Shown here: positions 6,330 through 58,178 of the stretch, in pieces | Position numbering within the stretch: the stretch's first letter is position 1 | Layout: every line of letters begins with the position of its first letter | Source of the DNA: Alphaproteobacteria bacterium | GTDB taxonomy: Bacteria; Pseudomonadota; Alphaproteobacteria; Bin95 | Length of the DNA: 64,000 nucleotides | Assembly: GCA_965205265.1 (NCBI GenBank) | Contig: CBDBGH010000003.1 | Coordinates: 3,776,001 to 3,840,000, forward strand | Direction: 5' to 3' | The notes under the pieces: generated by a model | What the model saw: the letters and a program-made list of their open reading frames with translations, nothing else | What the model was told of the DNA's origin: nothing | Databases searched by the model: none | Position numbers and translations under genes: made by a program

Positions 6330-6716
6330 ATGGCGGGAAAGGAACGGAAAAATCCCGAGACCGGGAAGAAACCTGCGGAGAACCGGAGCAATGCGCGCCG
6401 GCAGCGCTCGACCCGCTTCTCCGATTCCGAGTGGGACCTGATCCGGCGGGCCGCCGCGCGGCACGGCATGTCCCCCGGCGAACTCGTGCGGTCGAGCGCG
6501 GTCGCCGCTGCCGAAGACCGCCTGGGTGAGCTTCCCCCGGCCACCTTGTCGAAGGGCCACGCCGCGCTCATCGAGGAGATCTACCGCCTCGTCTACGTGA
6601 TGGCGACGCTCGACCGGGAGGAGATGCTCGACGTCGAACGCGAGAAAGAGCTCGACGACCTCGTCGCCGCCGCCCGCAGGAGCATGACGGAGACGATGGG
6701 CGAGGGCCCGGCGTGA
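6330..6716 (+). CDS. ribbon-helix-helix relaxosome accessory / mobilization protein
   Basis: RSTRFSDSEWDLIRRAAARHGMSPGELVRS RHH pattern; convergent with the relaxase remnant. Confidence 0.6.
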   Translation: MAGKERKNPETGKKPAENRSNARRQRSTRFSDSEWDLIRRAAARHGMSPGELVRSSAVAAAEDRLGELPPATLSKGHAALIEEIYRLVYVMATLDREEMLDVEREKELDDLVAAARRSMTETMGEGPA

Positions 6717-6851
6717 AGATCCGGGCGATGGATGTGCGCATTCGATCTGCCGCCCGAGACAAGGACATTGCGAGTCCGCCACGAGATTCCATCGATGTTC
6801 GGGAGCGGACCGCGTCCGGGGAAGTCCGAAAGGAGGTCCCGAAGGCTGCAA

Positions 6852-7332
6852 TCAGAGGCCGAGGTTCATGTCGATGCGTTTCTCTTGGACCGGCGTCTCG
6901 GGCTCCGGCGCCTTGTGCCTTGCCGGAACCGGCTCGATTTCCCGCGCCGGCTGGTGCGGCGCGGACGCCTCCGGGCTCGTCCGTTCCCTGTCGAGCGACG
7001 CCTTCCCGTCCTTTTGCTGCCCGCGTTCGCGCTCCGGGCGGAGGCTCTCGCCGATGCCTTCGAGGGCCGAGATGCGCTCGCCTGTGACCGCTTCCAGCCG
7101 CTCCTTCAGCGCCTGCACGTCGTCCGTGACCAGCTCCGCCCGGGCGCGCGCGGGATATCTCGACATAGAACGCCTTGGCCGTGGTCAGGTTGGGGTGGTT
7201 CGCTTCCATCGCCGCGATCACGTTGTCGACCGTACGGCCCTGAAAGGCATGCACGGTTGCGGCCCGTGCGTGATCCAGATGGCACAACTGCGGATCGCCC
7301 GGCGTCAGGGTGAGCCTGCGCCCCTCCTCCAG
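6852..7332 (-). pseudogene. 3' remnant of a MOBF relaxase-helicase (diverged duplicate of 14416-14898) with a frameshift
   Basis: Encodes HAFQGRTVDNVIAAMEANHPNLTTAKAFYVEISRAR; 2-nt deletion near 7145-7152 relative to the intact copy; no start. Confidence 0.9.
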
Positions 7333-7342
7333 TAACGGGCGA

Positions 7343-7375
7343 TAAAACGAGAGGGGAGAGACAACGTCTCTCCCC
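7343..7375 (-). terminator. intrinsic terminator of tracrRNA
   Basis: GGGGAGAGAC-GTT-GTCTCTCCCC followed by TCTCGTTTT on the minus strand. Confidence 0.75.
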
Positions 7376-7470
7376 ATATTCGTCTGGCAGCCCTCCATGG
7401 AAAGCTGCCTTACTGTAGTTGCTACTGCAAGCAGTTGCACAGCTTTACGCCGCTGCTCTCCAAAACAGCA
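7343..7470 (-). ncRNA. tracrRNA with split anti-repeat
   Basis: Anti-repeat blocks 7458-7470 and 7412-7423, followed by AAGGC nexus, hairpin 7386-7409 and terminator hairpin 7353-7375 plus U-tract; TTGACT -35 at 7504-7499. Confidence 0.85.
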
Positions 7471-7538
7471 GCCAATGCTTGCACCAGTCCCGCGCGCAAG
7501 TCAACATATTCTCGGAATCTTGCTGTCGGGGACTTTTC

Positions 7539-10500
7539 ATGAAGGTCGGATGGGGCATCGATGTCGGCGTCGGCAGTCTCGGCTTCGCAGTCATCGAACT
7601 GGATACGGCGAACCGCCCGGCACGGCTGATCGACGGCGTTGCGCTCTTTTATCCCGCGCCCACAGGCGGGGCGGGGCGGACCCGCCACAAATCCATGCGG
7701 ACGCAATACGGCCGCCGCGCCGACCGGGTAAAGGCGTTGCGCGCGTATCTCGTTCGCCTGCTCAACCTCGGTCCCGGCTTCTCCGACACCCCTGCGGGAC
7801 GCAGTACCGAGCGTGTCCCGCTGCGGGCGAAGGGCCTTGAGAGCCGCTTGAAAGCCGGCGATCTGGCCCGCGCCATCCTGCATATCGCGAAGAACCGGGG
7901 CCAGCGCCTGACACGGGGGCTCAGGGACGACTCCAAGGCCGACGCCAAGCAACAGGAAAAGAGCGCCAGGGAACGCCAGTCCATGGCGCACACGGCCAAC
8001 ACGACAAAAAACGAACTCGCGGCGCTCGGCGAAAGGCTGGGACTCGACGGCCCCGCCCACCCCTCGCAATTGCTAATGCGCAAGGCCGGCAAGAGGAGAA
8101 CGACCCGGCTGAAGAAAGACCGGGAAGGGATGCCGGTCTTCACTCGCCCCATGATGCAGGCGGAACTGGACGCGCTGCTGGAGACTCAACAGCCTTACCA
8201 CGAAGCGCTAACGGACATGGCTTGCGAGCAACTCAGGGAGATGGTGTTCGAGGAAGCGGAGCCGAAAGCGCCGTCCATCGGCAAATGCCGCTACGGCGTC
8301 CGCGGCGCCGATGGTGAAATCGAAACGCGGCTGTCGCGCGGCAGCGACTTGTTTCAACGCAAGCGCATCTACGAGGAAGTGAACAATCTGCGTCTGATAT
8401 CGTCGCGAACGGCGGCGGAACGGCCCTTGGATATGGCGCAGCGCGACCGTCTTGCCTTCCTGTTGCTCGATGGGCAGGACCTGACTGCGGCGGGAGTGCG
8501 CACAGCGCTGGGTTTGAGGCGCGGCGCGCTGGCCGACATGACCAGTCTGGATATCCGGCGCAAAGGCAGGAAAACGGCCGGCGAACTCAAGGGCCATCCG
8601 CTTGCCGCCGCCATGAGCAAGGCGGATGCGCTCGAACAGTGGCGGGGTTTCGATGAGGAGCGGCGTGAAAAGATCGCAAGTCTTGTACGCACGGAAGACG
8701 ACCGGGACATCTTGAACACCAAATTGAAAGAGCTCGACCTGCCGCCGGACGCCATTCAGGTGCTTTCGGATGCACGCCTGCCCGCCGCCCATTCCGCCGC
8801 CGGTGCGACGGCGACCCGGAAGCTGCTGGCTGAACTGGAAGCAGAGGTCATCCCGCACGACAAAGCAGAACAGCGGGCCGGACTCGAATCTCTCGATCAG
8901 GAACCGCCAAGTCTCGATCGGTTGCCCTACTACGGGGAAGTCCTGCAAGGATGGTGCATCGGGGGAAGCGGTGCGCCCGGAGACGCCGACGAAGCCCGTC
9001 TAGGCCGCATTTCGAATCCGGTCGTCCATGTGGCACTCAACCAGCTACGCAAGACCGCCAACGATTATCTGAAGCTCTACGGCAAGCCTGCGCAAATCTG
9101 CATCGAACTGGCCCGCGACCTGAACAGGAGCGCCGAGGAGCGTGACAACGCCGAAAAGGAGAATCTCAAAAACCGTAAGGAGAACGAAGCGCATATCGAG
9201 TCTCTGGGCGCCCATAAGCGCAAGCTCAAACCCGAAGACCTGAAACGAATGAGACTCCATAGAATGCAGGGCGGGGAATGCCTGTACACGGGAGAACCGA
9301 TCTGCATGGAGCACCTTTTCGACGGGTCGGTTGAGATCGACCATATACTGCCTTACGCCACGACCGGAGACGACGGCATCCCCAATCTGGCTTTAGTGTT
9401 CAAGGAAGCCAATCAATTCAAACGCAAGAGGCCTCCTTTCGAGGCATTCAGCGGTGGATACAAGGGCAAGGACTATGAGCATATCCTCAAGCGCGCGAAG
9501 CTCCGCGGCGGGAGCGTGTATTGGCGTTTCAAAGAGGATGCCATGAAGCGTTACGAGGACCGGGAAGAATTCCAACGCAGGTTCCTCAACGATACGCGCT
9601 ACATTGCAAGAATGGCGGCGCGTTATCTGTCTTGCGTATGCAAAGACCCGGATAACGGCGTCGTCAGCCTGAATGGTCGAATCACGTCGGACCTCCGCTA
9701 CTTGTGGGGCCTCCATACCGTAATCCGAGACATAATGGTGGAGGAAGGACGGCTTGATATCGGCGATATTCTGTCCCCCAGAGACGGTGAAACTCTCGAG
9801 GAAAGGCAAGCGCGCCTCAAACGCGCCGACAAGGTACGCTGGGACCATCGGCACCACTTGCTGGACGCGGTCGTTGCCGCCTGCACAACCCGAAGCGATG
9901 TGCAGCGCCTCCAGACGCTGGCGGCGCGTGATACAGGCAACGAGAGCGCCAGAGAAATTCTGGCCCAAATTCGTTACACCGAACCGAACTTTGAGAATAT
10001 TGGCATATGTTGGCAGGATGGGTTTCGGAGGACAGTAAAGGCTTTTCTGGAAGGCTGGAGACCCGCCGAAGCGACGGACAAACCGCCCGCCACCGCCGTG
10101 GTCGTGAAGGCCGATCACGATCCGCGAGGCCAACTGCACGAAGCGACGAACTACGGCCTTATATGCGAAGTCCCGGGCGAGCGGGACAAATATGTCGCCC
10201 GGGACCATGTCTCGATTTCGGAATTGGAGGTGAAACAAATCGAGAAGCTCGGTGTGCCCGAAACCGCAATCCGGGCTGTCGAGCGAGCGAAGGAGCAGGG
10301 CGCGCGCTTCTGGTGGGGCGGACACGACCCCGTGTCTTCCCTGCGCAATAATCTGGCCCCTGATTTGGAGAAGATGCGTGCCAGGCTTCTCGAATTGATG
10401 CAGGAAGCGCCACCCGAGGCTCTGGAAAACGCGCGCACGGCCAGAGGCCAGCAAAAGGCGCGGGCGGAGTGGGCGAAAAAGCGGTACATCGTGGAAACAA

Positions 10501-10991
10501 CCGGACGCCGCCGTTTTACGCGGGTCCAGATTGTCTCCCTGCGCGTTCTCAAAGGCCCGTTGGACCCCGGCAAAAGGCCCAGACAGGCCAACCGAACGAG
10601 AGGGAACGACCGTCTGGTCTATTTCGTGAATGGCGAAGGGGACCGGGATATCGAAGTTGTTTCGACCCTGGACGCCAATACGCCGGGGTTCCAGGAACGA
10701 TGGCGCCGCGAGGGCGGGCGGCGGCTGTTCGTTCTGCGGAGGAACGATCTCGTGGAAATGGCGGTCGACCCGAAGGACCTAGCCTCGCCGCGCCGCCTCT
10801 ACCGCACGGTCTCGTTCTCCGGCTTGGATAATCCCGATCTCGAATTTGTGCCCGTCGAGGAGGCGCGCTCCGGCAGACCGCCGAAGCATGTAAGGATCAG
10901 CAACAAGAAGGGGTTCTCGGAACGCGCGCCGGCAATGGTGCTGTGCGACCCTACGGGCCGCGTGCGCTGGCGAGGCCCCCGCCTCAACTGA
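7539..10991 (+). CDS. cas9: type II-C Cas9 (1150 aa), catalytic motifs intact
   Basis: RuvC-I GIDVG, Arg-rich bridge helix, RuvC-II IELARD, HNH EIDHILP..N..N, RuvC-III HHLLDA; followed by cas1-cas2 with no csn2/cas4. Confidence 0.97.
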   Translation: MKVGWGIDVGVGSLGFAVIELDTANRPARLIDGVALFYPAPTGGAGRTRHKSMRTQYGRRADRVKALRAYLVRLLNLGPGFSDTPAGRSTERVPLRAKGLESRLKAGDLARAILHIAKNRGQRLTRGLRDDSKADAKQQEKSARERQSMAHTANTTKNELAALGERLGLDGPAHPSQLLMRKAGKRRTTRLKKDREGMPVFTRPMMQAELDALLETQQPYHEALTDMACEQLREMVFEEAEPKAPSIGKCRYGVRGADGEIETRLSRGSDLFQRKRIYEEVNNLRLISSRTAAERPLDMAQRDRLAFLLLDGQDLTAAGVRTALGLRRGALADMTSLDIRRKGRKTAGELKGHPLAAAMSKADALEQWRGFDEERREKIASLVRTEDDRDILNTKLKELDLPPDAIQVLSDARLPAAHSAAGATATRKLLAELEAEVIPHDKAEQRAGLESLDQEPPSLDRLPYYGEVLQGWCIGGSGAPGDADEARLGRISNPVVHVALNQLRKTANDYLKLYGKPAQICIELARDLNRSAEERDNAEKENLKNRKENEAHIESLGAHKRKLKPEDLKRMRLHRMQGGECLYTGEPICMEHLFDGSVEIDHILPYATTGDDGIPNLALVFKEANQFKRKRPPFEAFSGGYKGKDYEHILKRAKLRGGSVYWRFKEDAMKRYEDREEFQRRFLNDTRYIARMAARYLSCVCKDPDNGVVSLNGRITSDLRYLWGLHTVIRDIMVEEGRLDIGDILSPRDGETLEERQARLKRADKVRWDHRHHLLDAVVAACTTRSDVQRLQTLAARDTGNESAREILAQIRYTEPNFENIGICWQDGFRRTVKAFLEGWRPAEATDKPPATAVVVKADHDPRGQLHEATNYGLICEVPGERDKYVARDHVSISELEVKQIEKLGVPETAIRAVERAKEQGARFWWGGHDPVSSLRNNLAPDLEKMRARLLELMQEAPPEALENARTARGQQKARAEWAKKRYIVETTGRRRFTRVQIVSLRVLKGPLDPGKRPRQANRTRGNDRLVYFVNGEGDRDIEVVSTLDANTPGFQERWRREGGRRLFVLRRNDLVEMAVDPKDLASPRRLYRTVSFSGLDNPDLEFVPVEEARSGRPPKHVRISNKKGFSERAPAMVLCDPTGRVRWRGPRLN

Positions 10992-10993
10992 CG

Positions 10994-11920
10994 ATGTGGC
11001 GCGTCGTCGATATCGCCGACGAAAACCGCGTTCTCTCGCTGTCGAGGGGTAGCCTGAAGGTTTCCGGCGACGGCGGCGAATTGGGCCGGGTGCCGCTTTC
11101 GGACATCCAGTGCGTTCTCGTGCACGGCCATAGCGCGATGCTGTCCCTGTCGTTGGGCGCGGCGTTGGCCGAAGCGGGGATTCCCCTTGTACTGTGCGGC
11201 CGCAACCATGCGCCTGTGGCCTTGTCTTTGCCTGTGTCTGGCAATTTCGAGCAGGCAGCGCGGCTGACCGCTCAGGCATCCCTGTCCCTGCCCAGGCGCA
11301 AGCAGCTTTGGCGGCGGCTGGTCATGGCGAAAATCGCCTCGCAGGCGCGGGCGCTGGAGATTGTGGGACAGCCCGACCACATGCGCCTTGCAAGGCTTGC
11401 GAGGTCGGTGCGATCCGGCGACCCGGACAATGTGGAAGCCCGCGCCGCGCGTTTCTACTGGCGGCGGTTGATGGGTAGCGATTTCCGGCGCGACCCCAAT
11501 GGCAACGGTCTCAACGCCCATTTGAACTACGGCTATGCGGTCGTTCGCTCCGCCATGGCCCGCGCCGTGGTCGGAGCGGGCCTGGCGCCCGGGCTGGGTT
11601 TGCATCACCGCAGCCGCCTGAACGCCTTCCAACTGGTGGACGACCTGATGGAGCCGTTCCGACCTCTCGTGGACCACGTAGTCTGGCGCAACCGGGAACA
11701 CTGGACCGGGGAAGTGGACACGGCGGCCAAACGGGAATTGGCGCTGGTCGTCAACGGCGCAATGGCGACGTCGGCGGGAGCGCACACCGTCTCGCGCGTC
11801 ATGTCGATGCTGGCCCACTCCCTGGCGGAGCTTTGCACGGGAGAGGCGGCGGATTTGTCATGGCCGCTCGACTGGGGTCTTGTGGCGCAAACCGAACTCG
11901 ACTTTGCCGACCGCCCGTGA
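10994..11920 (+). CDS. cas1: type II Cas1
   Basis: MWRVVDI start, NVEARAARFYW, NAHLNYGYAVVR, GLHH, LVDDLMEPFRP. Confidence 0.97.
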   Translation: MWRVVDIADENRVLSLSRGSLKVSGDGGELGRVPLSDIQCVLVHGHSAMLSLSLGAALAEAGIPLVLCGRNHAPVALSLPVSGNFEQAARLTAQASLSLPRRKQLWRRLVMAKIASQARALEIVGQPDHMRLARLARSVRSGDPDNVEARAARFYWRRLMGSDFRRDPNGNGLNAHLNYGYAVVRSAMARAVVGAGLAPGLGLHHRSRLNAFQLVDDLMEPFRPLVDHVVWRNREHWTGEVDTAAKRELALVVNGAMATSAGAHTVSRVMSMLAHSLAELCTGEAADLSWPLDWGLVAQTELDFADRP

Positions 11921-11966
11921 GCGCAGGCTGGTCCGACAGCGCTTTCGCGGCCGGGCCGGCCTTTGG

Positions 11967-12299
11967 ATGGAGGCCGTTTCCGGTTACAGGGCGATGTGGC
12001 TTGTGGTGTGTTTCGACCTGCCCGTAGGAACGTCGAAAGAGCGGCGCGACGCGACCCGCTTTCGTCACCGCCTGCTGAACGAAGGATTCGCGATGAAGCA
12101 ATGGTCGGTCTATACTCGCTACTTCCTCACACGGGCCCAAGCGGACGCCGCCGCCGTCCGGGTCGGCGGCTTCGTGCCGCCCATGGGGAAGGTCTCGATC
12201 ATTTTCATCACCGACAAGCAATTCGGCATGGTGCGCAATTTCGAGGGCCGGGCTCCCGCCGAAACGGAGAAAAAGCCCGACCAATTGGCCCTGTTCTGA
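11967..12299 (+). CDS. cas2: Cas2
   Basis: MWLVVCFDLPV, QWSVY, ITDKQF, C-terminal QLALF. Confidence 0.96.
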   Translation: MEAVSGYRAMWLVVCFDLPVGTSKERRDATRFRHRLLNEGFAMKQWSVYTRYFLTRAQADAAAVRVGGFVPPMGKVSIIFITDKQFGMVRNFEGRAPAETEKKPDQLALF

Positions 12300-12332
12300 T
12301 AGCCCCGGCTGCGAATCCTGTGCCAAGAATCG

Positions 12333-12363
12333 GCCCAACCCGTTGATTTTCAACGGGTTGGGC
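12333..12363. terminator. 14-bp perfect hairpin between cas2 and the array (likely terminator for convergent transcripts)
   Basis: GCCCAACCCGTTGA-TTT-TCAACGGGTTGGGC. Confidence 0.65.
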
Positions 12364-12370
12364 ACGGAGT

Positions 12371-14310
12371 ACTGTAGCCAATGCTGTTTCGGAGAGCAAC
12401 TACAGCCTCACACAGGCTTCCCAGTGCAGTTAGTCCACTGTAGCCAATGCTGTTTCGGAGAGCAACTACAGCAGGGACATTGCCAAGCTGTTCGGCATAG
12501 CGACTGTAGCCAATGCTGTTTCGGAGAGCAACTACAGCCACGGCAATGCGCGTATCCGTGGACGTGCGACTGTAGCCAATGCTGTTTCGGAGAGCAACTA
12601 CAGCTCGTAGTAGTAGCAGTTCATTGACTTTCCTACTGTAGCCAATGCTGTTTCGGAGAGCAACTACAGCGGGGGTGCATTGGGGTCTACCCTCATCTTT
12701 ACTGTAGCCAATGCTGTTTCGGAGAGCAACTACAGCCCCTGGAGAAGGCGACCGGGTCATCTTCACACTGTAGCCAATGCTGTTTCGGAGAGCAACTACA
12801 GCAAAGCCTACGTAAGCGCCGTTGATGACGGCACTGTAGCCAATGCTGTTTCGGAGAGCAACTACAGCTACGGCAATGCGTTTGTCCACGACGATGCGAC
12901 TGTAGCCAATGCTGTTTCGGAGAGCAACTACAGCTAACGCACGCGTCTACGGATGTGCGCGGGTACTGTAGCCAATGCTGTTTCGGAGAGCAACTACAGC
13001 GCGATGAGCCGGGACCTTGCCGCGACCATCACTGTAGCCAATGCTGTTTCGGAGAGCAACTACAGCGCGTACCATGTGTCAGGATATGCCGGTGCGACTG
13101 TAGCCAATGCTGTTTCGGAGAGCAACTACAGCGCTGTTCCTTCCTTCGAGCAGATTGTCGACACTGTAGCCAATGCTGTTTCGGAGAGCAACTACAGCGA
13201 ACTCACTACCAAGCCCGCGGCGTCGATGACTGTAGCCAATGCTGTTTCGGAGAGCAACTACAGCATATACCGGACCGCCACGCTGGTCGAGATAACTGTA
13301 GCCAATGCTGTTTCGGAGAGCAACTACAGCATAGCGGCGTACGAGGTTGCGGGAGGCCTGACTGTAGCCAATGCTGTTTCGGAGAGCAACTACAGCTACG
13401 GTACGGCGCACGTCTACGGCCAGGCGACTGTAGCCAATGCTGTTTCGGAGAGCAACTACAGCCGTCAAAGGTCCCGCGCCCGGAAGCTTCGGACTGTAGC
13501 CAATGCTGTTTCGGAGAGCAACTACAGCCTACCGCCGACATAGGCATCGCCACCGGGAACTGTAGCCAATGCTGTTTCGGAGAGCAACTACAGCACGCCT
13601 ACAGTCGGCGCACCCTCGGCCGGCACTGTAGCCAATGCTGTTTCGGAGAGCAACTACAGCCCGAATGCCGCCGATGTCCGCCGGTGGTGGACTGTAGCCA
13701 ATGCTGTTTCGGAGAGCAACTCCGCCGATGTCCGCCGGTGGTGTAGCCAATGCTGTTTCGGAGGCAACTACAGCATACGAACCACTCGCCGCTCTCGCCG
13801 CAATCGGAGAGCAACTACAGCCATCCTGGCGGATGCACCGCCAACGAGCAATGCGCAACTACAGCTCAGCCATTGCACTGTAGCCAATGCTGTTTCGGAG
13901 AGCAACTACAGCGCGTTGCGCCTCTCGGCCAAGCTCGCCGAGACTGTAGCCAATGCTGTTTCGGAGAGCAACTACAGCATCGGGACTGTCGCGCTATGCG
14001 CTGGAACTGCACTGTAGCCAATGCTGTTTCGGAGAGCAACTACAGCGAGATCCGCTCAAGGGCGCGCTTGTCATGAACTGTAGCCAATGCTGTTTCGGAG
14101 AGCAACTACAGCCTAACCGTATGTCTCAATGCCGCATTCGGTACTGTAGCCAATGCTGTTTCGGAGAGCAACTACAGCATAAGCGCACCCGACGATGTCG
14201 AACGTCTCACTGTAGCCAATGCTGTTTCGGAGAGCAACTACAGCGCGGGCTCTGGTGCGGCGCGGCTTCGCGCGACTGTAGCCAATGCTGTTTCGGAGAG
14301 CAACTACAGC
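12371..14310 (-). CRISPR. type II-C CRISPR array: 27 perfect 36-bp repeats plus 4 partial ones; spacers mostly 30 bp
   Basis: Repeat GCTGTAGTTGCTCTCCGAAACAGCATTGGCTACAGT (minus strand), 66-bp period; disturbed block 13691-13876; orientation inferred from tracrRNA pairing and type II-C convention. Confidence 0.99.
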
Positions 14311-14415
14311 TATTACGGCTCGGCGAGCGCGTGCTGGTACTGTTCCAGGAAATGACCTTCATCGTGCTTCGCGCCTCGGGACAAGCGACCGCAAAGGAGC
14401 TGCCGTCCGCACACA

Positions 14416-17367
14416 TTACATCCCGAGGTCCATCTCGATCCGCTTGCCCGTGGCGGGCGGTTCGGGCTCCGGCGCCTTGTCCCTTGCCGGAAACGGCTCG
14501 ATATCCCGCACCGGGGGGTGCGGCGACGACGTCTCGGCACTCACCCGCTCTCTGTCGAGCGACGCCTTCCCGTCCTTTTCCCGCCCGCGTTCGCGTTCCG
14601 GGCGGAGGCTCTCGCCGATGCCTTCGAGGGCCGAGAGGCGCTCGCCGGTGACCGCTTCCAGCCGTTCCTTCAGCGCCTGGGCGTCGTCGGTGACCAGTTC
14701 CGCCCGGTCGCGGGCGCGGGATATCTCGACATAGAACGCCTTGGCGGTGGTCAGGTTGGGGTGGTTCGCCTCCATCGCCGCGATCACGTTGTCGACGGTG
14801 CGGCCCTGGAATGCATGCACGGTCGCGGCCCAGGCATGATCCAGATGGCGCAGCTGGGGATCGCCCGGGGTCAGGGTGAGCCTGCGCCCCTCCTCCAGCA
14901 GGAACGTCACCCGCCCGTTGCGCACGCCGATCACCTCGGCTGTGCCGGAGTTGACCAGTCCCAATCCTCTGTCGTTGCGGGTCCAGCGGATGCGGTCGCC
15001 GGCGCGCAGTTCGACGGTTTCGGCGCGGTAGACCTCGGTCCCGCCCTTGCGTCCGCCGATCTCCGACGGCTTCCAGGCGACCCGGCCGCCGTGGCCGTCG
15101 TCCAGCAGCACCGCGCGGGCCTTGCGATCGACGCCCATGACGCAGCGCTCGTCGCCCTTCTCCACGCCGAGCCGCCTGTAGGGACGGTGGAAGGCGACCA
15201 CGTCGCCGGGGGCATAGTTGGAGGCGAGCGCCTTCTCCGCGTGCGTGTAGTCCTTCGAGACCAGCCGCCGGGTTTGCAGGACCGGCCCCGCGATGCGCCC
15301 CTCGCGGGCGAGGCGTTCGCGGATATGGGCGTTGATGCCCTCGCGCAACTCATGGCTCGGCGCCATCACCCCGGTGCGCTCCCGCTCTTCGGGCGAGAGC
15401 GCGAGCCACCGTGCCGCCACCGCGCCGGCGATGTTGTCGGGCTTCACCTCGGCGACATGGGAGCCGAGCCTGTCGAACGCCGTGGCGATCTCGCCCGCGA
15501 GGCTCGCCTCGACGGCGGCCTTCAGGCCGGGGTCGCGCTGGCGCAGGATCTCGTCCATCACCGCGGTCTTCATGCCCGCCTGCTGCAACTGGGCGAACGG
15601 TTTGCCGGCATCGACGGCGTCGAGCTGCTTCGCATCGCCCACCAGCACCAGCTTCGGGATGCGGATGGCGGCGGCGATCCTGAGCAGGTCGCGGGCCTGG
15701 ACGGTGGAAGCGAGGGAGCCCTCGTCGACCACCAGCACGGTCCTCGCGAAGGCCGCGCGCATGTCCTTCGCGCCCTTCTTCGTCAGCCTGCCCTCGGCGA
15801 CGCCGGCGTTCCTCGCGAGGAACCGCTGGAGGGTCTCGCTCTCGATGCCCGATTCCGCCGCCAGCGTGCGGACCGCCGAGGCCGACGGGGCGAGGCCCGC
15901 CATGCGCCAGCCCTTCTTCTCCGCCAGCGCCCGGGCGCGGTTCAGCATCCGCGTCTTCCCCGTCCCGGCGAACCCCTGCACCCCGACCGTGTGGTCCTTC
16001 TCCGAGAGAATGAGCTTCACCGCCTCCCGCTGCCCGGCCGTGAGCGGTCCCTTCCTGAGATGCCGGTCCACCCTCCAGCCGCGCATCGGCGCACGGCCCC
16101 GGCCCGCGCCGCCGCGCATCAGCGCGATCGTCTCGCGCTCGTCGGCCACCGCCCTGTCGGTGGTGAGGCCGCCGCCTTGCTCAAACGCCGGCGCGTCGTG
16201 CAGCCGGCCCTCGCGCCGGAGCCCGGCGACGGCCCGCTCGATCTCGCCGATGGAGGCCACGCCGGGGTTGTACGCAAGCGCGGCCGCGAGCAGGTCGGTC
16301 CTGGCGAACACCGCATCGCGCTCCGAGAGATGGGCCAGCGCCCAGTCCACCGCTTCCCTCGCAGGGTCCGCCCGCGCCGCGTGCTCGAACAGGTCCGCAT
16401 CTCTCGCCGCGCCGGCTTCCTTCTCCGCACCGCCCAGGCTCCGCGCCGCCGCCTCGGCCACCAGCGCCCCGGCGTCGAAGCCGAGTTCGGCGGCCTGCTT
16501 GGCCCAGGTCTCGCGCAGCGCCTCCCGGTCCACATCGCGCTTCGCCGCCCGCGTCATCAGCGCCGCGCGGCGGGCGGCATGCTGGTTCTCCGCCGTCGAC
16601 CCGAAGCCCCGGCCCGCCATCGCCGCCTCGATCTCGGCCCGGCGCGTCGAGAACGCTTCGATGACCTCGCGGGAAACGCCCGCGATCTCGAAGCGCCCGT
16701 CGGCATGGGTCCGCTCGATGCCGTAGCCGAGCGATGTCAGTTCCCTCGCAAGCTCGCTGCGGTAGAGCGCGCCCAGCAGCATCTTCGAGGCGTACAGGCT
16801 CTCGTTCGCCATGGTGCGCCATTTCCCGTCCGGGCCGAGCAGCATGTTGGCGATCACCGAATGGGTGTGCAGCGCCGGATCGAGGTTCCGGGAAGTCTCG
16901 TGCCTGAACCGGGCGACCACCGTCCTCTGATCGCCGGCCCGGACCATGCGGCCGGTCGACCTGTCCTGCACCCGGGTCTCGGCGGCGTTGCTCTCGAACC
17001 GGTCGAGCGCGCGCCCGACCGCCCGGTCGTGGGCATCCACGATGCGCCCGTCGCCGCCGACCAGAGCCGCGAGGGAGACACTCTTCGGCGCGCTGAAGGT
17101 CAGGTCGCGGCCGGGCCGGTGGACGATCCCGTCCTCGCCCATGCGGCGGCCGAGACGCTTCCCCGAGCCGTCCGGCACCTCACCCTCCAGCACCGCCCTG
17201 AACGCATCGGGATCGACCGGACCGGACAGGCCGAGCGCTTCGGCGCCCCGGCCCGCCCAGGCGCTGGCGGCGCGATGTTCGAGGGAGTCCTTCGCGTAGT
17301 AGCCATCGGCCTCGTAGTAGTGCGCCCCCTGGGACGGGCTCGCGACCGCGCCGATCGAGGCAACCAT
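14416..17367 (-). CDS. MOBF (TrwC-like) conjugative relaxase-helicase, 983 aa
   Basis: N-terminal YY..DGYY tyrosines, DLTFSAPKSVS, HETSRNLDPALHTH 3H motif, Walker A GFAGTGKT, VVDEGS. Confidence 0.96.
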   Translation of the reverse strand: MVASIGAVASPSQGAHYYEADGYYAKDSLEHRAASAWAGRGAEALGLSGPVDPDAFRAVLEGEVPDGSGKRLGRRMGEDGIVHRPGRDLTFSAPKSVSLAALVGGDGRIVDAHDRAVGRALDRFESNAAETRVQDRSTGRMVRAGDQRTVVARFRHETSRNLDPALHTHSVIANMLLGPDGKWRTMANESLYASKMLLGALYRSELARELTSLGYGIERTHADGRFEIAGVSREVIEAFSTRRAEIEAAMAGRGFGSTAENQHAARRAALMTRAAKRDVDREALRETWAKQAAELGFDAGALVAEAAARSLGGAEKEAGAARDADLFEHAARADPAREAVDWALAHLSERDAVFARTDLLAAALAYNPGVASIGEIERAVAGLRREGRLHDAPAFEQGGGLTTDRAVADERETIALMRGGAGRGRAPMRGWRVDRHLRKGPLTAGQREAVKLILSEKDHTVGVQGFAGTGKTRMLNRARALAEKKGWRMAGLAPSASAVRTLAAESGIESETLQRFLARNAGVAEGRLTKKGAKDMRAAFARTVLVVDEGSLASTVQARDLLRIAAAIRIPKLVLVGDAKQLDAVDAGKPFAQLQQAGMKTAVMDEILRQRDPGLKAAVEASLAGEIATAFDRLGSHVAEVKPDNIAGAVAARWLALSPEERERTGVMAPSHELREGINAHIRERLAREGRIAGPVLQTRRLVSKDYTHAEKALASNYAPGDVVAFHRPYRRLGVEKGDERCVMGVDRKARAVLLDDGHGGRVAWKPSEIGGRKGGTEVYRAETVELRAGDRIRWTRNDRGLGLVNSGTAEVIGVRNGRVTFLLEEGRRLTLTPGDPQLRHLDHAWAATVHAFQGRTVDNVIAAMEANHPNLTTAKAFYVEISRARDRAELVTDDAQALKERLEAVTGERLSALEGIGESLRPERERGREKDGKASLDRERVSAETSSPHPPVRDIEPFPARDKAPEPEPPATGKRIEMDLGM

Positions 17368-56672: not shown

Positions 56673-58178
56673 CTAACCGCCGCCCAGCTCCTCGCGCAAG
56701 AGGCGCTTCAGCACCTTGCCGGAGGGGTTGCGCGGCAGTTCGGCCCTCAGGTGCAGCTCCTTCGGCACCTTGAAGCCGGCCAGCCGGGCGCGGCAATAGC
56801 GCTGCAATTCCTCCAGGGTCAATGAGGCGCCGGGCCGGAGCGCCACGACCGCGGCCGGCCGCTCGCCCCAGCGCTCGTCCGCAAGGCCGATGGCCGCCGC
56901 CTCATGCACGGCGTCGTGCTCGTAGAGCACCCGCTCGATCTCCGAGGACGCGATGTTCTCGCCGCCGGAAAGGATCATGTCCTTGCGCCGGTCGGTGAGG
57001 TAGAGGAAGCCCTCCTCGTCCAGCCAGCCGACATCGCCGGTTCTCAGCCGGTCTCCGAAAAACGCTTCGGCCGTGCGTTCCGGGTCGTGCCAGTAGCCGC
57101 GCGTGATCTTCGGGCCTCTCAGGCAGATCTCGCCCTCCTCGCCCGGCGCGAGCGCGCGGCCCGCCTCGTCGCGCACCGTCACCTCGACATGGGCGATCGC
57201 GCGGCCGACCGAGCCGATCTTCTCCAGCTCGCGTCCCGCCTCCATCAGTGTGTCGCCGCCGACGCTTTCCGTCAGCCCGTAGGCGTCGATATAGCGGGCG
57301 CCCGGAAAGGCGGCGGCGAATTCCCGGATGCGCGATTCGGGCGTGCGCTCGCCGCCGCCGATCACCCATTCGAGCGCGCTTGCGTCGAAGCGGCCGAGCC
57401 CCGGGTCGGCGAGCACGCCATTGGTGATCGTGGGCGCGAGCCAGGCGCCGGTGACGCGCTCGGCCTCCAGCGCCTCCAGGATTGCCCGCGGCCGCGCCTC
57501 CCGGTGCAGAACGATGCAGCCGCCCCGGCGCCAGACATCGATCCCCGGCAGGTCGAAGCCGCCGACATGGTAGAGCGGGCCCACCACCAGCAGCCGGTCG
57601 TCGGGCCCGCCGCCGAGCGCGGCCGTCTGGTCGAGGCACTTCCAGTAGAAGTTCGCGTAGCTGTGCTGCACGCCCTTCGGCCGGTCGGTGGTGCCGGAGG
57701 TGTACATGAGGCGGAAGACATCGTCGGGCGCGGCCCCGGCCATAGGCGGAGCCTCCGCCCCGGCACTCAGCCGCCGGCTGTCGCGCGCCGTCCCGGCGTC
57801 GAGCGGCGTAAAGGGCACGCGCGCCGCTTCCGCCGCTGCGGCGGCGGCATCGAGTTCCTCGTCGGCGAACAGGCGCCGGGCGCCCGCATGGTCGAGAATC
57901 CAGGCGATTTCGTCGGCGGCGAGGCGGAAGTTGAGCGGCAGGAAGACCGCGCCGACATGGCTGGCGGCGAAGGCGAGGTCGTAGAAGGCGGGGCTGTTCT
58001 TCAGGCAGGCCGCGACGACATCGCCGGGGCCGAGGCCGAGCACCGCCAGCCTGCCGGCCATCGCCGTCATGTTGTCCAGGAGCGCGCCGTAACCGAGCCG
58101 GAGGTCTTCATAGACGAGCGCCTCGCGCTCCGGCGTGCGCCGGGCGTGAAAGGCGATGAAGCTCGTGAGCGCAATCAT
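56673..58178 (-). CDS. AMP-binding acyl-CoA synthetase
   Basis: YTSGTTDRPKG, YGLTE, RTGD, SGGENI, GKVLK. Confidence 0.93.
   Translation of the reverse strand: MIALTSFIAFHARRTPEREALVYEDLRLGYGALLDNMTAMAGRLAVLGLGPGDVVAACLKNSPAFYDLAFAASHVGAVFLPLNFRLAADEIAWILDHAGARRLFADEELDAAAAAAEAARVPFTPLDAGTARDSRRLSAGAEAPPMAGAAPDDVFRLMYTSGTTDRPKGVQHSYANFYWKCLDQTAALGGGPDDRLLVVGPLYHVGGFDLPGIDVWRRGGCIVLHREARPRAILEALEAERVTGAWLAPTITNGVLADPGLGRFDASALEWVIGGGERTPESRIREFAAAFPGARYIDAYGLTESVGGDTLMEAGRELEKIGSVGRAIAHVEVTVRDEAGRALAPGEEGEICLRGPKITRGYWHDPERTAEAFFGDRLRTGDVGWLDEEGFLYLTDRRKDMILSGGENIASSEIERVLYEHDAVHEAAAIGLADERWGERPAAVVALRPGASLTLEELQRYCRARLAGFKVPKELHLRAELPRNPSGKVLKRLLREELGGG

Follow-up and report, generated by a model that had tools for sequence, protein, structure and literature searches.

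The tracrRNA that accompanies a type II-C-like CRISPR-Cas9 cassette in an Alphaproteobacteria bacterium has its anti-repeat split by a 34-nt insertion. The insertion is real. Judging from homologous loci and thermodynamic folding, we hold, with confidence somewhat above even, that it is neutral or nearly so and tolerated as an extruded branch, and that the RNA still works.

A type II-C-like cassette

In the window, the whole stretch of 64,000 nt that was analysed, cas9, cas1 and cas2 are contiguous on the plus strand (7539-12299). The cas9 gene (7539..10991) is intact and encodes a protein of 1150 amino acids with RuvC_III, HNH_4 and Cas9_a domains; cas1 (10943..11920; Cas_Cas1, E = 4.6e-29) and cas2 (11880..12299; CRISPR_Cas2, E = 5e-14) follow on the same strand, the start codon of neither being fixed. 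The CRISPR array begins at 12371 (12371..14310, minus strand) and contains 27 exact copies of a 36-nt repeat, GCTGTAGTTGCTCTCCGAAACAGCATTGGCTACAGT in the minus-strand reading, separated by spacers of 30 nt; around 13740-13870 the array is degenerate and rearranged. No csn2 or cas4 was found at the cassette. Since type II-C is defined by a minimal cas9-cas1-cas2 operon in which both are absent, a feature shared with N. meningitidis (Nme1/Nme2 Cas9) according to the consulted part of PMC3737331, we assigned a type II-C architecture: the locus is a type II-C-like CRISPR-Cas9 cassette.

The catalytic residues D8, H602, N625, H772 and D776 of Cas9 are invariant in an alignment of five proteins (alignment A3). 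A search of solved structures returned compact Cas9s as the best matches to the window Cas9, among them 6jdq, which we take to be the Nme Cas9. These alignments cover mainly residues 490-728, so the window Cas9 is a distant relative of any enzyme of known structure, and the PDB match search returned no structure for its clade. A further trait of type II-C arrays is a promoter within every repeat; here the end of the repeat, TGGCTACAGT, looks similar to the Neisseria -10 element.

The tracrRNA gene and its parts

The tracrRNA gene (7344..7471, minus strand) lies upstream of cas9 and divergent from it, with a 5′ end predicted at ~7468-7472 and a 3′ end in the T run past the terminator. Along the minus strand, TGCTGTTTTGGAG (7470-7458) is followed by the 34-nt segment AGCAGCGGCGTAAAGCTGTGCAACTGCTTGCAGT (7457-7424), then by AGCAACTACAGT (7423-7412) and by AAGGC (7411-7407). 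The first of these segments constitutes the 5′ (distal) half of the anti-repeat (7458..7470), complementary to repeat nt 13-25 and extendable to 7452 (repeat nt 7-25), and the third constitutes the 3′ (guide-proximal) half (7412..7423), complementary to repeat nt 1-12. With G-U wobbles allowed, complementarity to repeat nt 1-25 amounts to 13 + 12 nt, or up to 19 + 12 nt with overlap. Next come an AA junction and the nexus hairpin, which has GGC at its base (7386..7411; hairpin 7409-7386, 9-10 bp), and the gene ends with an intrinsic terminator and its T run (7344..7375), the terminator being a 10-bp G+C-rich hairpin at 7375-7353. This order follows the general tracrRNA plan given by Faure et al. 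(PMC6546382, consulted in part), in which the lower stem leads directly into an AA junction and a nexus stem-loop whose base is G-rich, and a terminator closes the RNA. The letters agree with the original prediction, according to which the two flanks pair with repeat nt 13-25 and 1-12 and run into an AAGGC nexus.

The 128-nt tracrRNA folds far better than shuffled sequences (z = -6.3, 0/200). In the nexus hairpin, 97% of the 36 cells contributed by four sequences of alignment A1 are paired, compared with at most 53% in slid controls. The same four sequences include one compensatory G-C to A-U double change, a signal that with four rows is not significant in the shuffle control (177/500). A search of Rfam over 6800-14800 returned 0 matches at E up to 1, which does not weigh against the identity of the RNA because tracrRNAs are highly diverse between Cas9 groups.

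A TTGACT hexamer is located at 7499..7504 on the minus strand, and its TTGAC is common to all five loci. It may be the -35-like element of the tracrRNA or, alternatively, belong to the cas9 -10 of the opposite strand; a promoter consensus scan gave 0 promoter-like sites on either strand.

The polarity of the anti-repeat implies that the crRNA, too, would come from the minus strand, opposite to the cas operon. Transcription of the array against the direction of the cas genes was demonstrated experimentally in N. meningitidis and C. jejuni (PMC3737331, in the part consulted); the polarity in the window is deduced from the strand of the anti-repeat. A genome scan for sequences within 4 substitutions of repeat nt 1-22 revealed no second anti-repeat outside the arrays, a single candidate with 4 mismatches looking like chance, and the arrays consequently depend on the window-type tracrRNA. 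On its sequence, the RNA is a genuine tracrRNA of the type II-C-like locus.

The insertion is absent from homologous loci

Four distinct homologous loci, with Cas9s 59-70% identical to that of the window, were compared. L001 belongs to a MAG (59% identity in the search, 60% in alignment A3); L006, from genome G011 of the same genus, and L007, from genome G049 of another family, each encode a Cas9 that is 70% identical; L027 (= L028) is one metagenomic sequence seen twice (63-64%). A further locus, L029, was left out as a fragment without the upstream region. In all four, a tracrRNA is found at the same place upstream of cas9, GCTGTTTTGGAGAGCAGCTACAGTAAGG is read uninterrupted (with AAGA in L007) and the 34 nt are absent. 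Alignment A1 displays a single gap of 34 columns, with 31 nt around the site identical and the rest collinear. The homologs thus resemble the window in position and strand, TTGAC, anti-repeat letters, AA junction, nexus and terminator, but lack the 34 nt, and their Cas9s keep 14 residues after the bridge helix; those with arrays also differ in forming an unbroken helix with their own repeats. The 5′ half of the anti-repeat is 100% conserved across all five loci.

Comparison of the aligned loci identifies the 34 nt as a lineage-specific insertion, and the claim that this tracrRNA has an anti-repeat broken by a 34-nt insert is borne out by the homologous RNAs that lack it at four loci of four. 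The original prediction had named homologs that lack the insert and show no covariation as a result that would count against it, and this is the result for the four fetched homologs: none carries the insert, and no covariation is possible.

Alignment A1 puts the insertion at 7452-7419, and it is equally placeable at 7424..7457, the boundaries being ambiguous by up to 6 nt because the AGCAGC before the insert and the AGCAAC at its end are near-duplicates. It can be described as 30 new bases between two copies of AGCA, a 4-nt exact duplication.

To delimit the distribution of this RNA, genomes were searched with a pattern composed of GGAGAGCA, a gap of 1-40 nt and CTACAGTAAG, or a close variant. 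The search covered 17 genomes from the genus, 37 from the family (which equals the order), 401 sampled evenly across the class and 7 from the family to which G049 belongs. Matches were confined to G000 (both copies of the locus, see below), G011 and G049, and in these same sets no genome beyond G000 carried the insert. No further tracrRNA homolog was found in plasmids or phages by blastn, or in viral contigs by pattern scans. The tracrRNA family is rare.

Origin of the insert

None of the 15-mers of the insert occurs elsewhere in the 5.7-Mb genome, and its 14-mers and 13-mers have 3 and 15 genome matches, of the same order as the ~1.6 and 6.6 expected by chance. The insert has no match in plasmids, phages or viral contigs. 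As a copy of its own flanks it is not significant, with 746/2000 shuffles scoring as well in the sense orientation and 197/2000 in the antisense orientation. The 30 nt between the AGCA copies equal in length the spacers of this array.

Alignment A2 sets the anti-repeat of the homologs on the 3′ part of the insert, with 16/24 matches by eye; it was not taken as evidence of a tandem duplication because 11 of the 16 matches correspond to the true 3′ half. There is a very slim chance that the insert is a spacer mis-integrated by Cas1-Cas2 into the repeat-like DNA of the anti-repeat. The duplication of 4 nt argues against this origin, since integration by Cas1-Cas2 should give one of repeat length.

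Predicted folds with and without the repeat

When repeat and tracrRNA of the homologs were co-folded, an unbroken helix of at least 19 bp starting from repeat nt 1 was obtained in the three homologs that have arrays: 28 bp in G011, 21 bp to the first irregularity in G049 and 19 bp to a single mismatch in L027. The insertion therefore breaks a helix that is normally continuous. On this point the earlier view, in which the insert takes the place of the usual small bulge, does not hold, as these three homologs show no bulge there. The small central bulge of Nme likewise has no counterpart in the tracrRNA family of the window, whereas the window itself has a 34-nt one-sided branch.

For the window tracrRNA with the repeat, thermodynamic co-folding predicts a four-way junction from which two insert hairpins are extruded, a result that supports, at the level of a model, the multi-way junction proposed before. 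In this predicted dimer, repeat nt 1-8 pair with the 3′ half (pair probabilities of at least 0.91) and nt 9-25 pair with the 5′ half including the first AGCA, with probabilities of 0.9-1.0 for nt 12-24 and of 0.54 for nt 25. Repeat nt 9-12 are shared between the two halves, and because they fit either AGCA copy the position of the junction can shift anywhere from bp 8 to bp 12. The insert hairpins of the dimer are GCGGC/GCTGT and GC-ACTG/CAGT-GC with a CTTG loop, with pair probabilities of 0.6-0.96. Of the two hairpins put forward previously, ACTG-CTTG-CAGT is robustly predicted (p ~0.9), but the first has alternative registers, GCGGC/GCTGT being the one adopted in the dimer. Taken alone, the insert shows no folding advantage over dinucleotide shuffles (z = +0.34 and -0.24; 111/200 and 74/200 shuffles fold as well).

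The minimum free energy of the dimer is -91.3 kcal/mol with the insert and -85.6 kcal/mol without it. In ensemble calculations, the net free energy of pairing with the 36-nt repeat goes from -28.4 kcal/mol without the insert to -16.4 kcal/mol with it, and from -32.5 to -20.5 kcal/mol when 25 nt of the repeat are considered. The predicted pairing is thus about 12 kcal/mol weaker with the insert, yet strongly favourable. This weakening arises because the free RNA sequesters both halves of the anti-repeat in cis hairpins: in its predicted fold, a 5′ hairpin common to all five tracrRNAs is lengthened by the insert from 7 to 10 bp, and the GCTGT of the insert pairs with an ACAGT beside the nexus, a 3′ segment that is single-stranded in the homologs.

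An unsupported reading as a natural single guide resembling tracr-L

The cis pairing of the free RNA recalls the tracr-L of S. pyogenes, in which repeat-mimicking residues form the lower stem in cis and an 11-nt 5′ sequence matches the cas9 promoter next to a PAM (10.1101/2020.05.21.102756, consulted in part). Transposed to the window, the insert would mimic the 5′ end of the repeat and pair with the anti-repeat in cis, leaving the 5′ 29 nt (7472-7444) to guide Cas9 to a promoter that it would repress, an alternative already raised from the sequence and which we now regard as highly improbable. Its pairing component is present at the level of prediction: the minimum-energy fold of the free RNA has the 5-bp GCTGT/ACAGT helix, plus GC/GC and ACTG/CAGT by the nexus, and 4 of the 5 GCTGT/ACAGT pairs stay in the predicted centroid fold. 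Its guide component fails, as nothing near the cas9 promoter would serve as a target of the putative guide. Within 7300-7700, the final 6-11 nt of that sequence are not matched a second time, even over as few as 6 nt; the last 12 nt, with at most 1 mismatch, match themselves and one site at 57801, ~50 kb away (expected 0.24); and the 11-mer has 4 further copies in the 5.7-Mb genome, none near cas9, for about 3 expected by chance according to rough arithmetic.

The 11-nt match to Pcas9 beside a PAM, which defines the S. pyogenes RNA, therefore has no counterpart here. The true lower stem is moreover mimicked over only 5 bp and the element occurs in none of the four homologs. The two RNAs would have in common an anti-repeat able to pair in cis, which in the window is predicted, and a sizeable additional segment tolerated within the hybrid region; in tracr-L this segment extends the upper stem by 79 nt, as far as the consulted part of that source describes it. 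They differ in that the segment of the window lies inside the anti-repeat, not as a 5′ extension, with a 5-bp mimic and no promoter target for a guide, and in that the locus is type II-C-like, not II-A.

A possible second allele and a deletion in Cas9

Two further observations were examined in relation to a possible function of the insert. A 181-nt contig from run X7, obtained in another study under the same species label, matches 7456-7420 at 34 positions over its first 37 nt and then continues, printed on the plus strand, as AACTTTCCATGGAAAGTTACCTTACTGTAG, which is unlike the window sequence. Read on the RNA strand, this continuation comprises an anti-repeat end, then an AA junction, then a nexus hairpin in which several paired positions depart from those of the window in a compensatory-looking manner. 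The contig hints at a diverged allele likewise bearing the insert; the type of the X7 run, RNA, is a guess. In the five-protein alignment A3, the only sizeable indel specific to the window Cas9 is a gap of 14 residues following residue 81, immediately behind the arginine-rich bridge helix and at the beginning of the RNA-recognition lobe; the residues that come next are also diverged. This deletion may be a coincidence on a long branch.

Together with the fold of the free RNA, these observations give some substance to the idea, distinctly unlikely in our estimation, that the insert is a functional module, either an auto-inhibitory self-sequestering element or a handle for another factor, perhaps matched by the deletion in Cas9. 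The free RNA is predicted to pair the insert with both anti-repeat halves (the 5′ hairpin extended from 7 to 10 bp, and GCTGT/ACAGT by the nexus), the window Cas9 alone of five lacks the 14 residues (alignment columns 83-96, where the RNA-binding lobe starts), and the X7 contig hints at a second, diverged allele bearing the insert. However, the insert is present in none of the four homologs, its hairpins are no more stable than those of shuffles, the branch to the nearest homolog is long enough (30% amino-acid divergence) for two unrelated events to be unremarkable, and the X7 contig is a single low-depth record. A more specific version, which we find unlikely, would make the insert a throttle: the free tracrRNA would be closed and would open with abundant crRNA or Cas9, Cas9 would have shed a 14-residue loop to accommodate the four-way junction, and the arrangement would have been kept in at least two diverged alleles, those of the window and of X7.

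A duplicated locus and possible signs of activity

A region of at least ~29 kb, the whole cassette included, is present a second time in the genome in inverted orientation, and Cas9 and the tracrRNA with its insert are identical in the two copies. Contigs of three other runs, from three studies and under three organism labels, cross the insert with 0 differences, so the insert is not an assembly error. As all these sequences are identical, neither the copies nor the other runs are informative on selection. Gene conversion could have homogenized the two tracrRNA copies.

The arrays of the two copies have 29 and 49 repeats, of which 27 and 49 are letter-perfect. Both contain spacers 1-3 at the cas-distal end as well as a common block of 16, and their cas2-proximal ends hold 4 and 7 spacers unique to each copy. 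If new spacers enter next to cas2, as the Neisseria/Campylobacter polarity implies, these spacers were gained after the duplication and hence after the insertion. By this analogy, the different terminal spacers next to cas2 weakly suggest activity after the insertion, although they could also reflect differential loss rather than gain.

No protospacers were found among plasmids or the 17 genus genomes searched with the arrays, and as a result no PAM could be derived; two 37-nt matches of the arrays, at 89%, in Mycobacteroides plasmids were taken as chance. A spacer matching the own genome at 29/30 positions, a candidate case of self-targeting, was dropped as evidence of activity, since the match sits in a second, unrelated CRISPR array.

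These features bear on the possibility, unlikely but to be reckoned with, that the insertion cripples or attenuates the tracrRNA, both copies of the locus being in decay or Cas9 being largely unloaded. Such decay would have spared cas9, cas1 and cas2, which are intact with conserved catalytic residues, as well as the 27 and 49 letter-perfect repeats, and it is at odds with the 4 and 7 unique spacers of the cas2-proximal ends and with a net pairing energy that is still strongly favourable. Impairment is nevertheless what one would read from a break in a helix that is continuous in three of three homologs, from a predicted penalty of ~12 kcal/mol accompanied by loss, in the free RNA, of the single-stranded 3′ half that the homologs expose, from the lack of a back-up tracrRNA in the genome and from the degenerate, rearranged zone of the window array.

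The insert could also be bypassed if the functional tracrRNA started downstream of it or were processed there, the 12-nt proximal anti-repeat alone being used. The transcription start site is a predicted one, and Nme guides work with shortened duplexes according to the consulted part of PMC8560862. We nonetheless judge this short form very unlikely: it would discard a 5′ half that shows 100% conservation across the five loci and retains its complementarity to the repeat, and upstream of which stands the conserved TTGAC; moreover, a scan of the insert found no promoter-like site inside it.

A branch probably tolerated in the dual-RNA helix

The reading that we prefer is a working RNA that bears its insert as an extruded branch. 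One lineage gained 34 nt, 30 of them new and flanked by the duplicated AGCA, inside the anti-repeat and 8-12 bp from the guide-proximal end of the crRNA:tracrRNA helix. Guide-proximal stem, AA junction, nexus hairpin with its GGC base and terminator, which are the modules that Cas9 needs most, are intact, and the distal 13-19 nt of the anti-repeat retain the ability to pair with the repeat. The insertion, its absence from relatives, the integrity of these modules and of the cas genes, and the lack of an alternative tracrRNA are all observed. In the duplex, the insert would be extruded as a small branch of two hairpins, approximately where the Neisseria enzyme stops holding the duplex. Transcription of the insert, its extrusion as predicted and its tolerance by Cas9 are the steps that we infer. 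The insert is likely young and neutral or slightly costly.

Structural and functional data from other Cas9s are compatible with such tolerance. In NmeCas9, roughly one half of the duplex between repeat and anti-repeat is gripped by REC1 and WED, and the remaining half has few contacts and reportedly can be dispensed with (PMC10516666, consulted in part). Truncation of the duplex yields working Nme guides of 121 nt and 100 nt (PMC8560862, in its consulted part). The lower stem is described as buried and most important, and secondary bulges occur in the upper stem at seemingly random positions (PMC6546382, same restriction), and tracr-L tolerates its 79-nt extension of the upper stem (10.1101/2020.05.21.102756, same restriction). 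By analogy with the Neisseria enzyme, it is plausible that a branch 8-12 bp from the guide lies near the boundary of the part held by the protein; it may also fall inside that part, because the helix of the homologs is unbroken over at least 19 bp.

The analogy has its limits. That the protein holds the proximal part of the duplex alone, as described for N. meningitidis Cas9 (PMC10516666, in part), would count as a likeness to the window, but the tracrRNA of the window, unlike that of Nme, is upstream of and divergent from cas9, and its Cas9 is only distantly related. A comparable insertion is the 18-nt insert of some Streptococcus tracrRNAs (Faure et al. 2018, PMC6546382, consulted in part), which is similarly lineage-specific, leaves the paired core intact and has no known role. 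That insert is located in the nexus loop, stated to be an insertion hot spot, whereas the insert of the window is in the repeat:anti-repeat hybrid. An anti-repeat interrupted by a structured insertion was not encountered in full-text literature searches or in the consulted parts of PMC6546382 and PMC3737331.

If the locus is active, it would be a natural proof that the dual-RNA helix of Cas9 bears a 34-nt structured branch 8-12 bp from the guide. It would then mark a place where aptamers or other handles might be built into compact type II-C guides, and provide a natural case in which to ask what extent of the repeat:anti-repeat helix is actually read by Cas9. Should the locus be inactive, the insertion would illustrate one way to silence a Cas9 system on a conjugative element while leaving the cas genes untouched.

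Sequence upstream of the anti-repeat and between the tracrRNA and cas9 genes

The split anti-repeat of the tracrRNA is directly preceded by a 10-nt stretch that runs into it (7479-7470 on the minus strand, AGCATTGGCT) and is identical, in the same sense, to nucleotides 22-31 of the Cas9-array repeat. This identity is absent in the homologs. The embedded promoter of Neisseria-type repeats resides in the part corresponding to these nucleotides.

By-eye reading of the adjoining intergenic segment (7479-7507) revealed a back-to-back arrangement on the two strands, conserved in all five loci compared, namely the window and its four homologs. On the minus strand, facing the tracrRNA, TTGAC(T/A/C) is followed after 17 nt by CAAnnn, and on the plus strand, facing cas9, TTG(C/A)(A/C/T)(C/G) is followed, again after 17 nt, by CAA(C/T)AT, such that the putative -35 element of one strand overlaps the putative -10 element of the other. 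None of these back-to-back sites scored in a promoter consensus scan.

A deletion in the window's Cas9

The Cas9 encoded in the window (gene 7539-10991) lacks 14 residues that are present in all four homologs (columns 83-96 of A3, the alignment of the five Cas9 proteins). The deletion follows F81, immediately past the bridge helix.

The CRISPR-Cas cassette as probable cargo of a conjugative element

The whole cassette (~7333-14422) is bracketed by direct repeats of 477 bp, 88.7% identical, located at 6859-7332 and 14423-14898. One repeat makes up the 3′ terminus of a full-length TrwC relaxase gene (14416-17367, minus strand), whose 983-aa product carries the TrwC, AAA_30 and UvrD_C_2 domains. 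The other belongs to a relaxase C-terminal fragment (6568-7341, minus strand) that retains UvrD_C_2 only, at a score slightly under the Pfam cut-off. These relaxase-derived repeats suggest that a conjugative element carries the Cas9 locus as cargo, inserted at the 3′ end of its relaxase gene. The chromosome (contig C3) of the source genome, G000, contains related copies of this element at ~3.19 and 3.42-3.50 Mb.

Duplication of the region and divergence of the two arrays

The cassette lies in a region of at least 29 kb that occurs twice in this chromosome, at window positions 1-28820 and, in inverted orientation, at G000:C3:5432428-5462511, and the duplication may reach past the window start. 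Outside the arrays, the two copies are 99.7-100% identical. Their Cas9 arrays comprise 29 versus 49 repeats, a divergence made up of internal deletions and of unique cas2-proximal spacers (4 and 7). Within the window's array, a degenerate zone (13740-13870) contains truncated repeats and fused spacer pieces; these pieces match intact spacers 22-26 of the other copy's array, so the zone is the product of deletions in the window's array.

Other CRISPR systems in the genome

A third cas9 gene lies at G000:C3:5128244-5130448 (open frame of 1058 aa). Its product is only 30% identical to the window's Cas9, over residues 4-731, pointing to a second type II system in G000, distinct from that of the window.

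The chromosome also harbors a second CRISPR array unrelated to the Cas9 arrays (locus L039, G000:C3 ~3410390-3412540), with a repeat of ~37 nt (GTATCCGGGGCGCGCGCGCCCCGGCCTCATTGAAGC) and a period of ~73. Two L039 spacers overlap Cas9-array spacers, with 29/30 and 22/23 identical positions, so two different CRISPR systems of one genome took spacers from the same regions of an invader.
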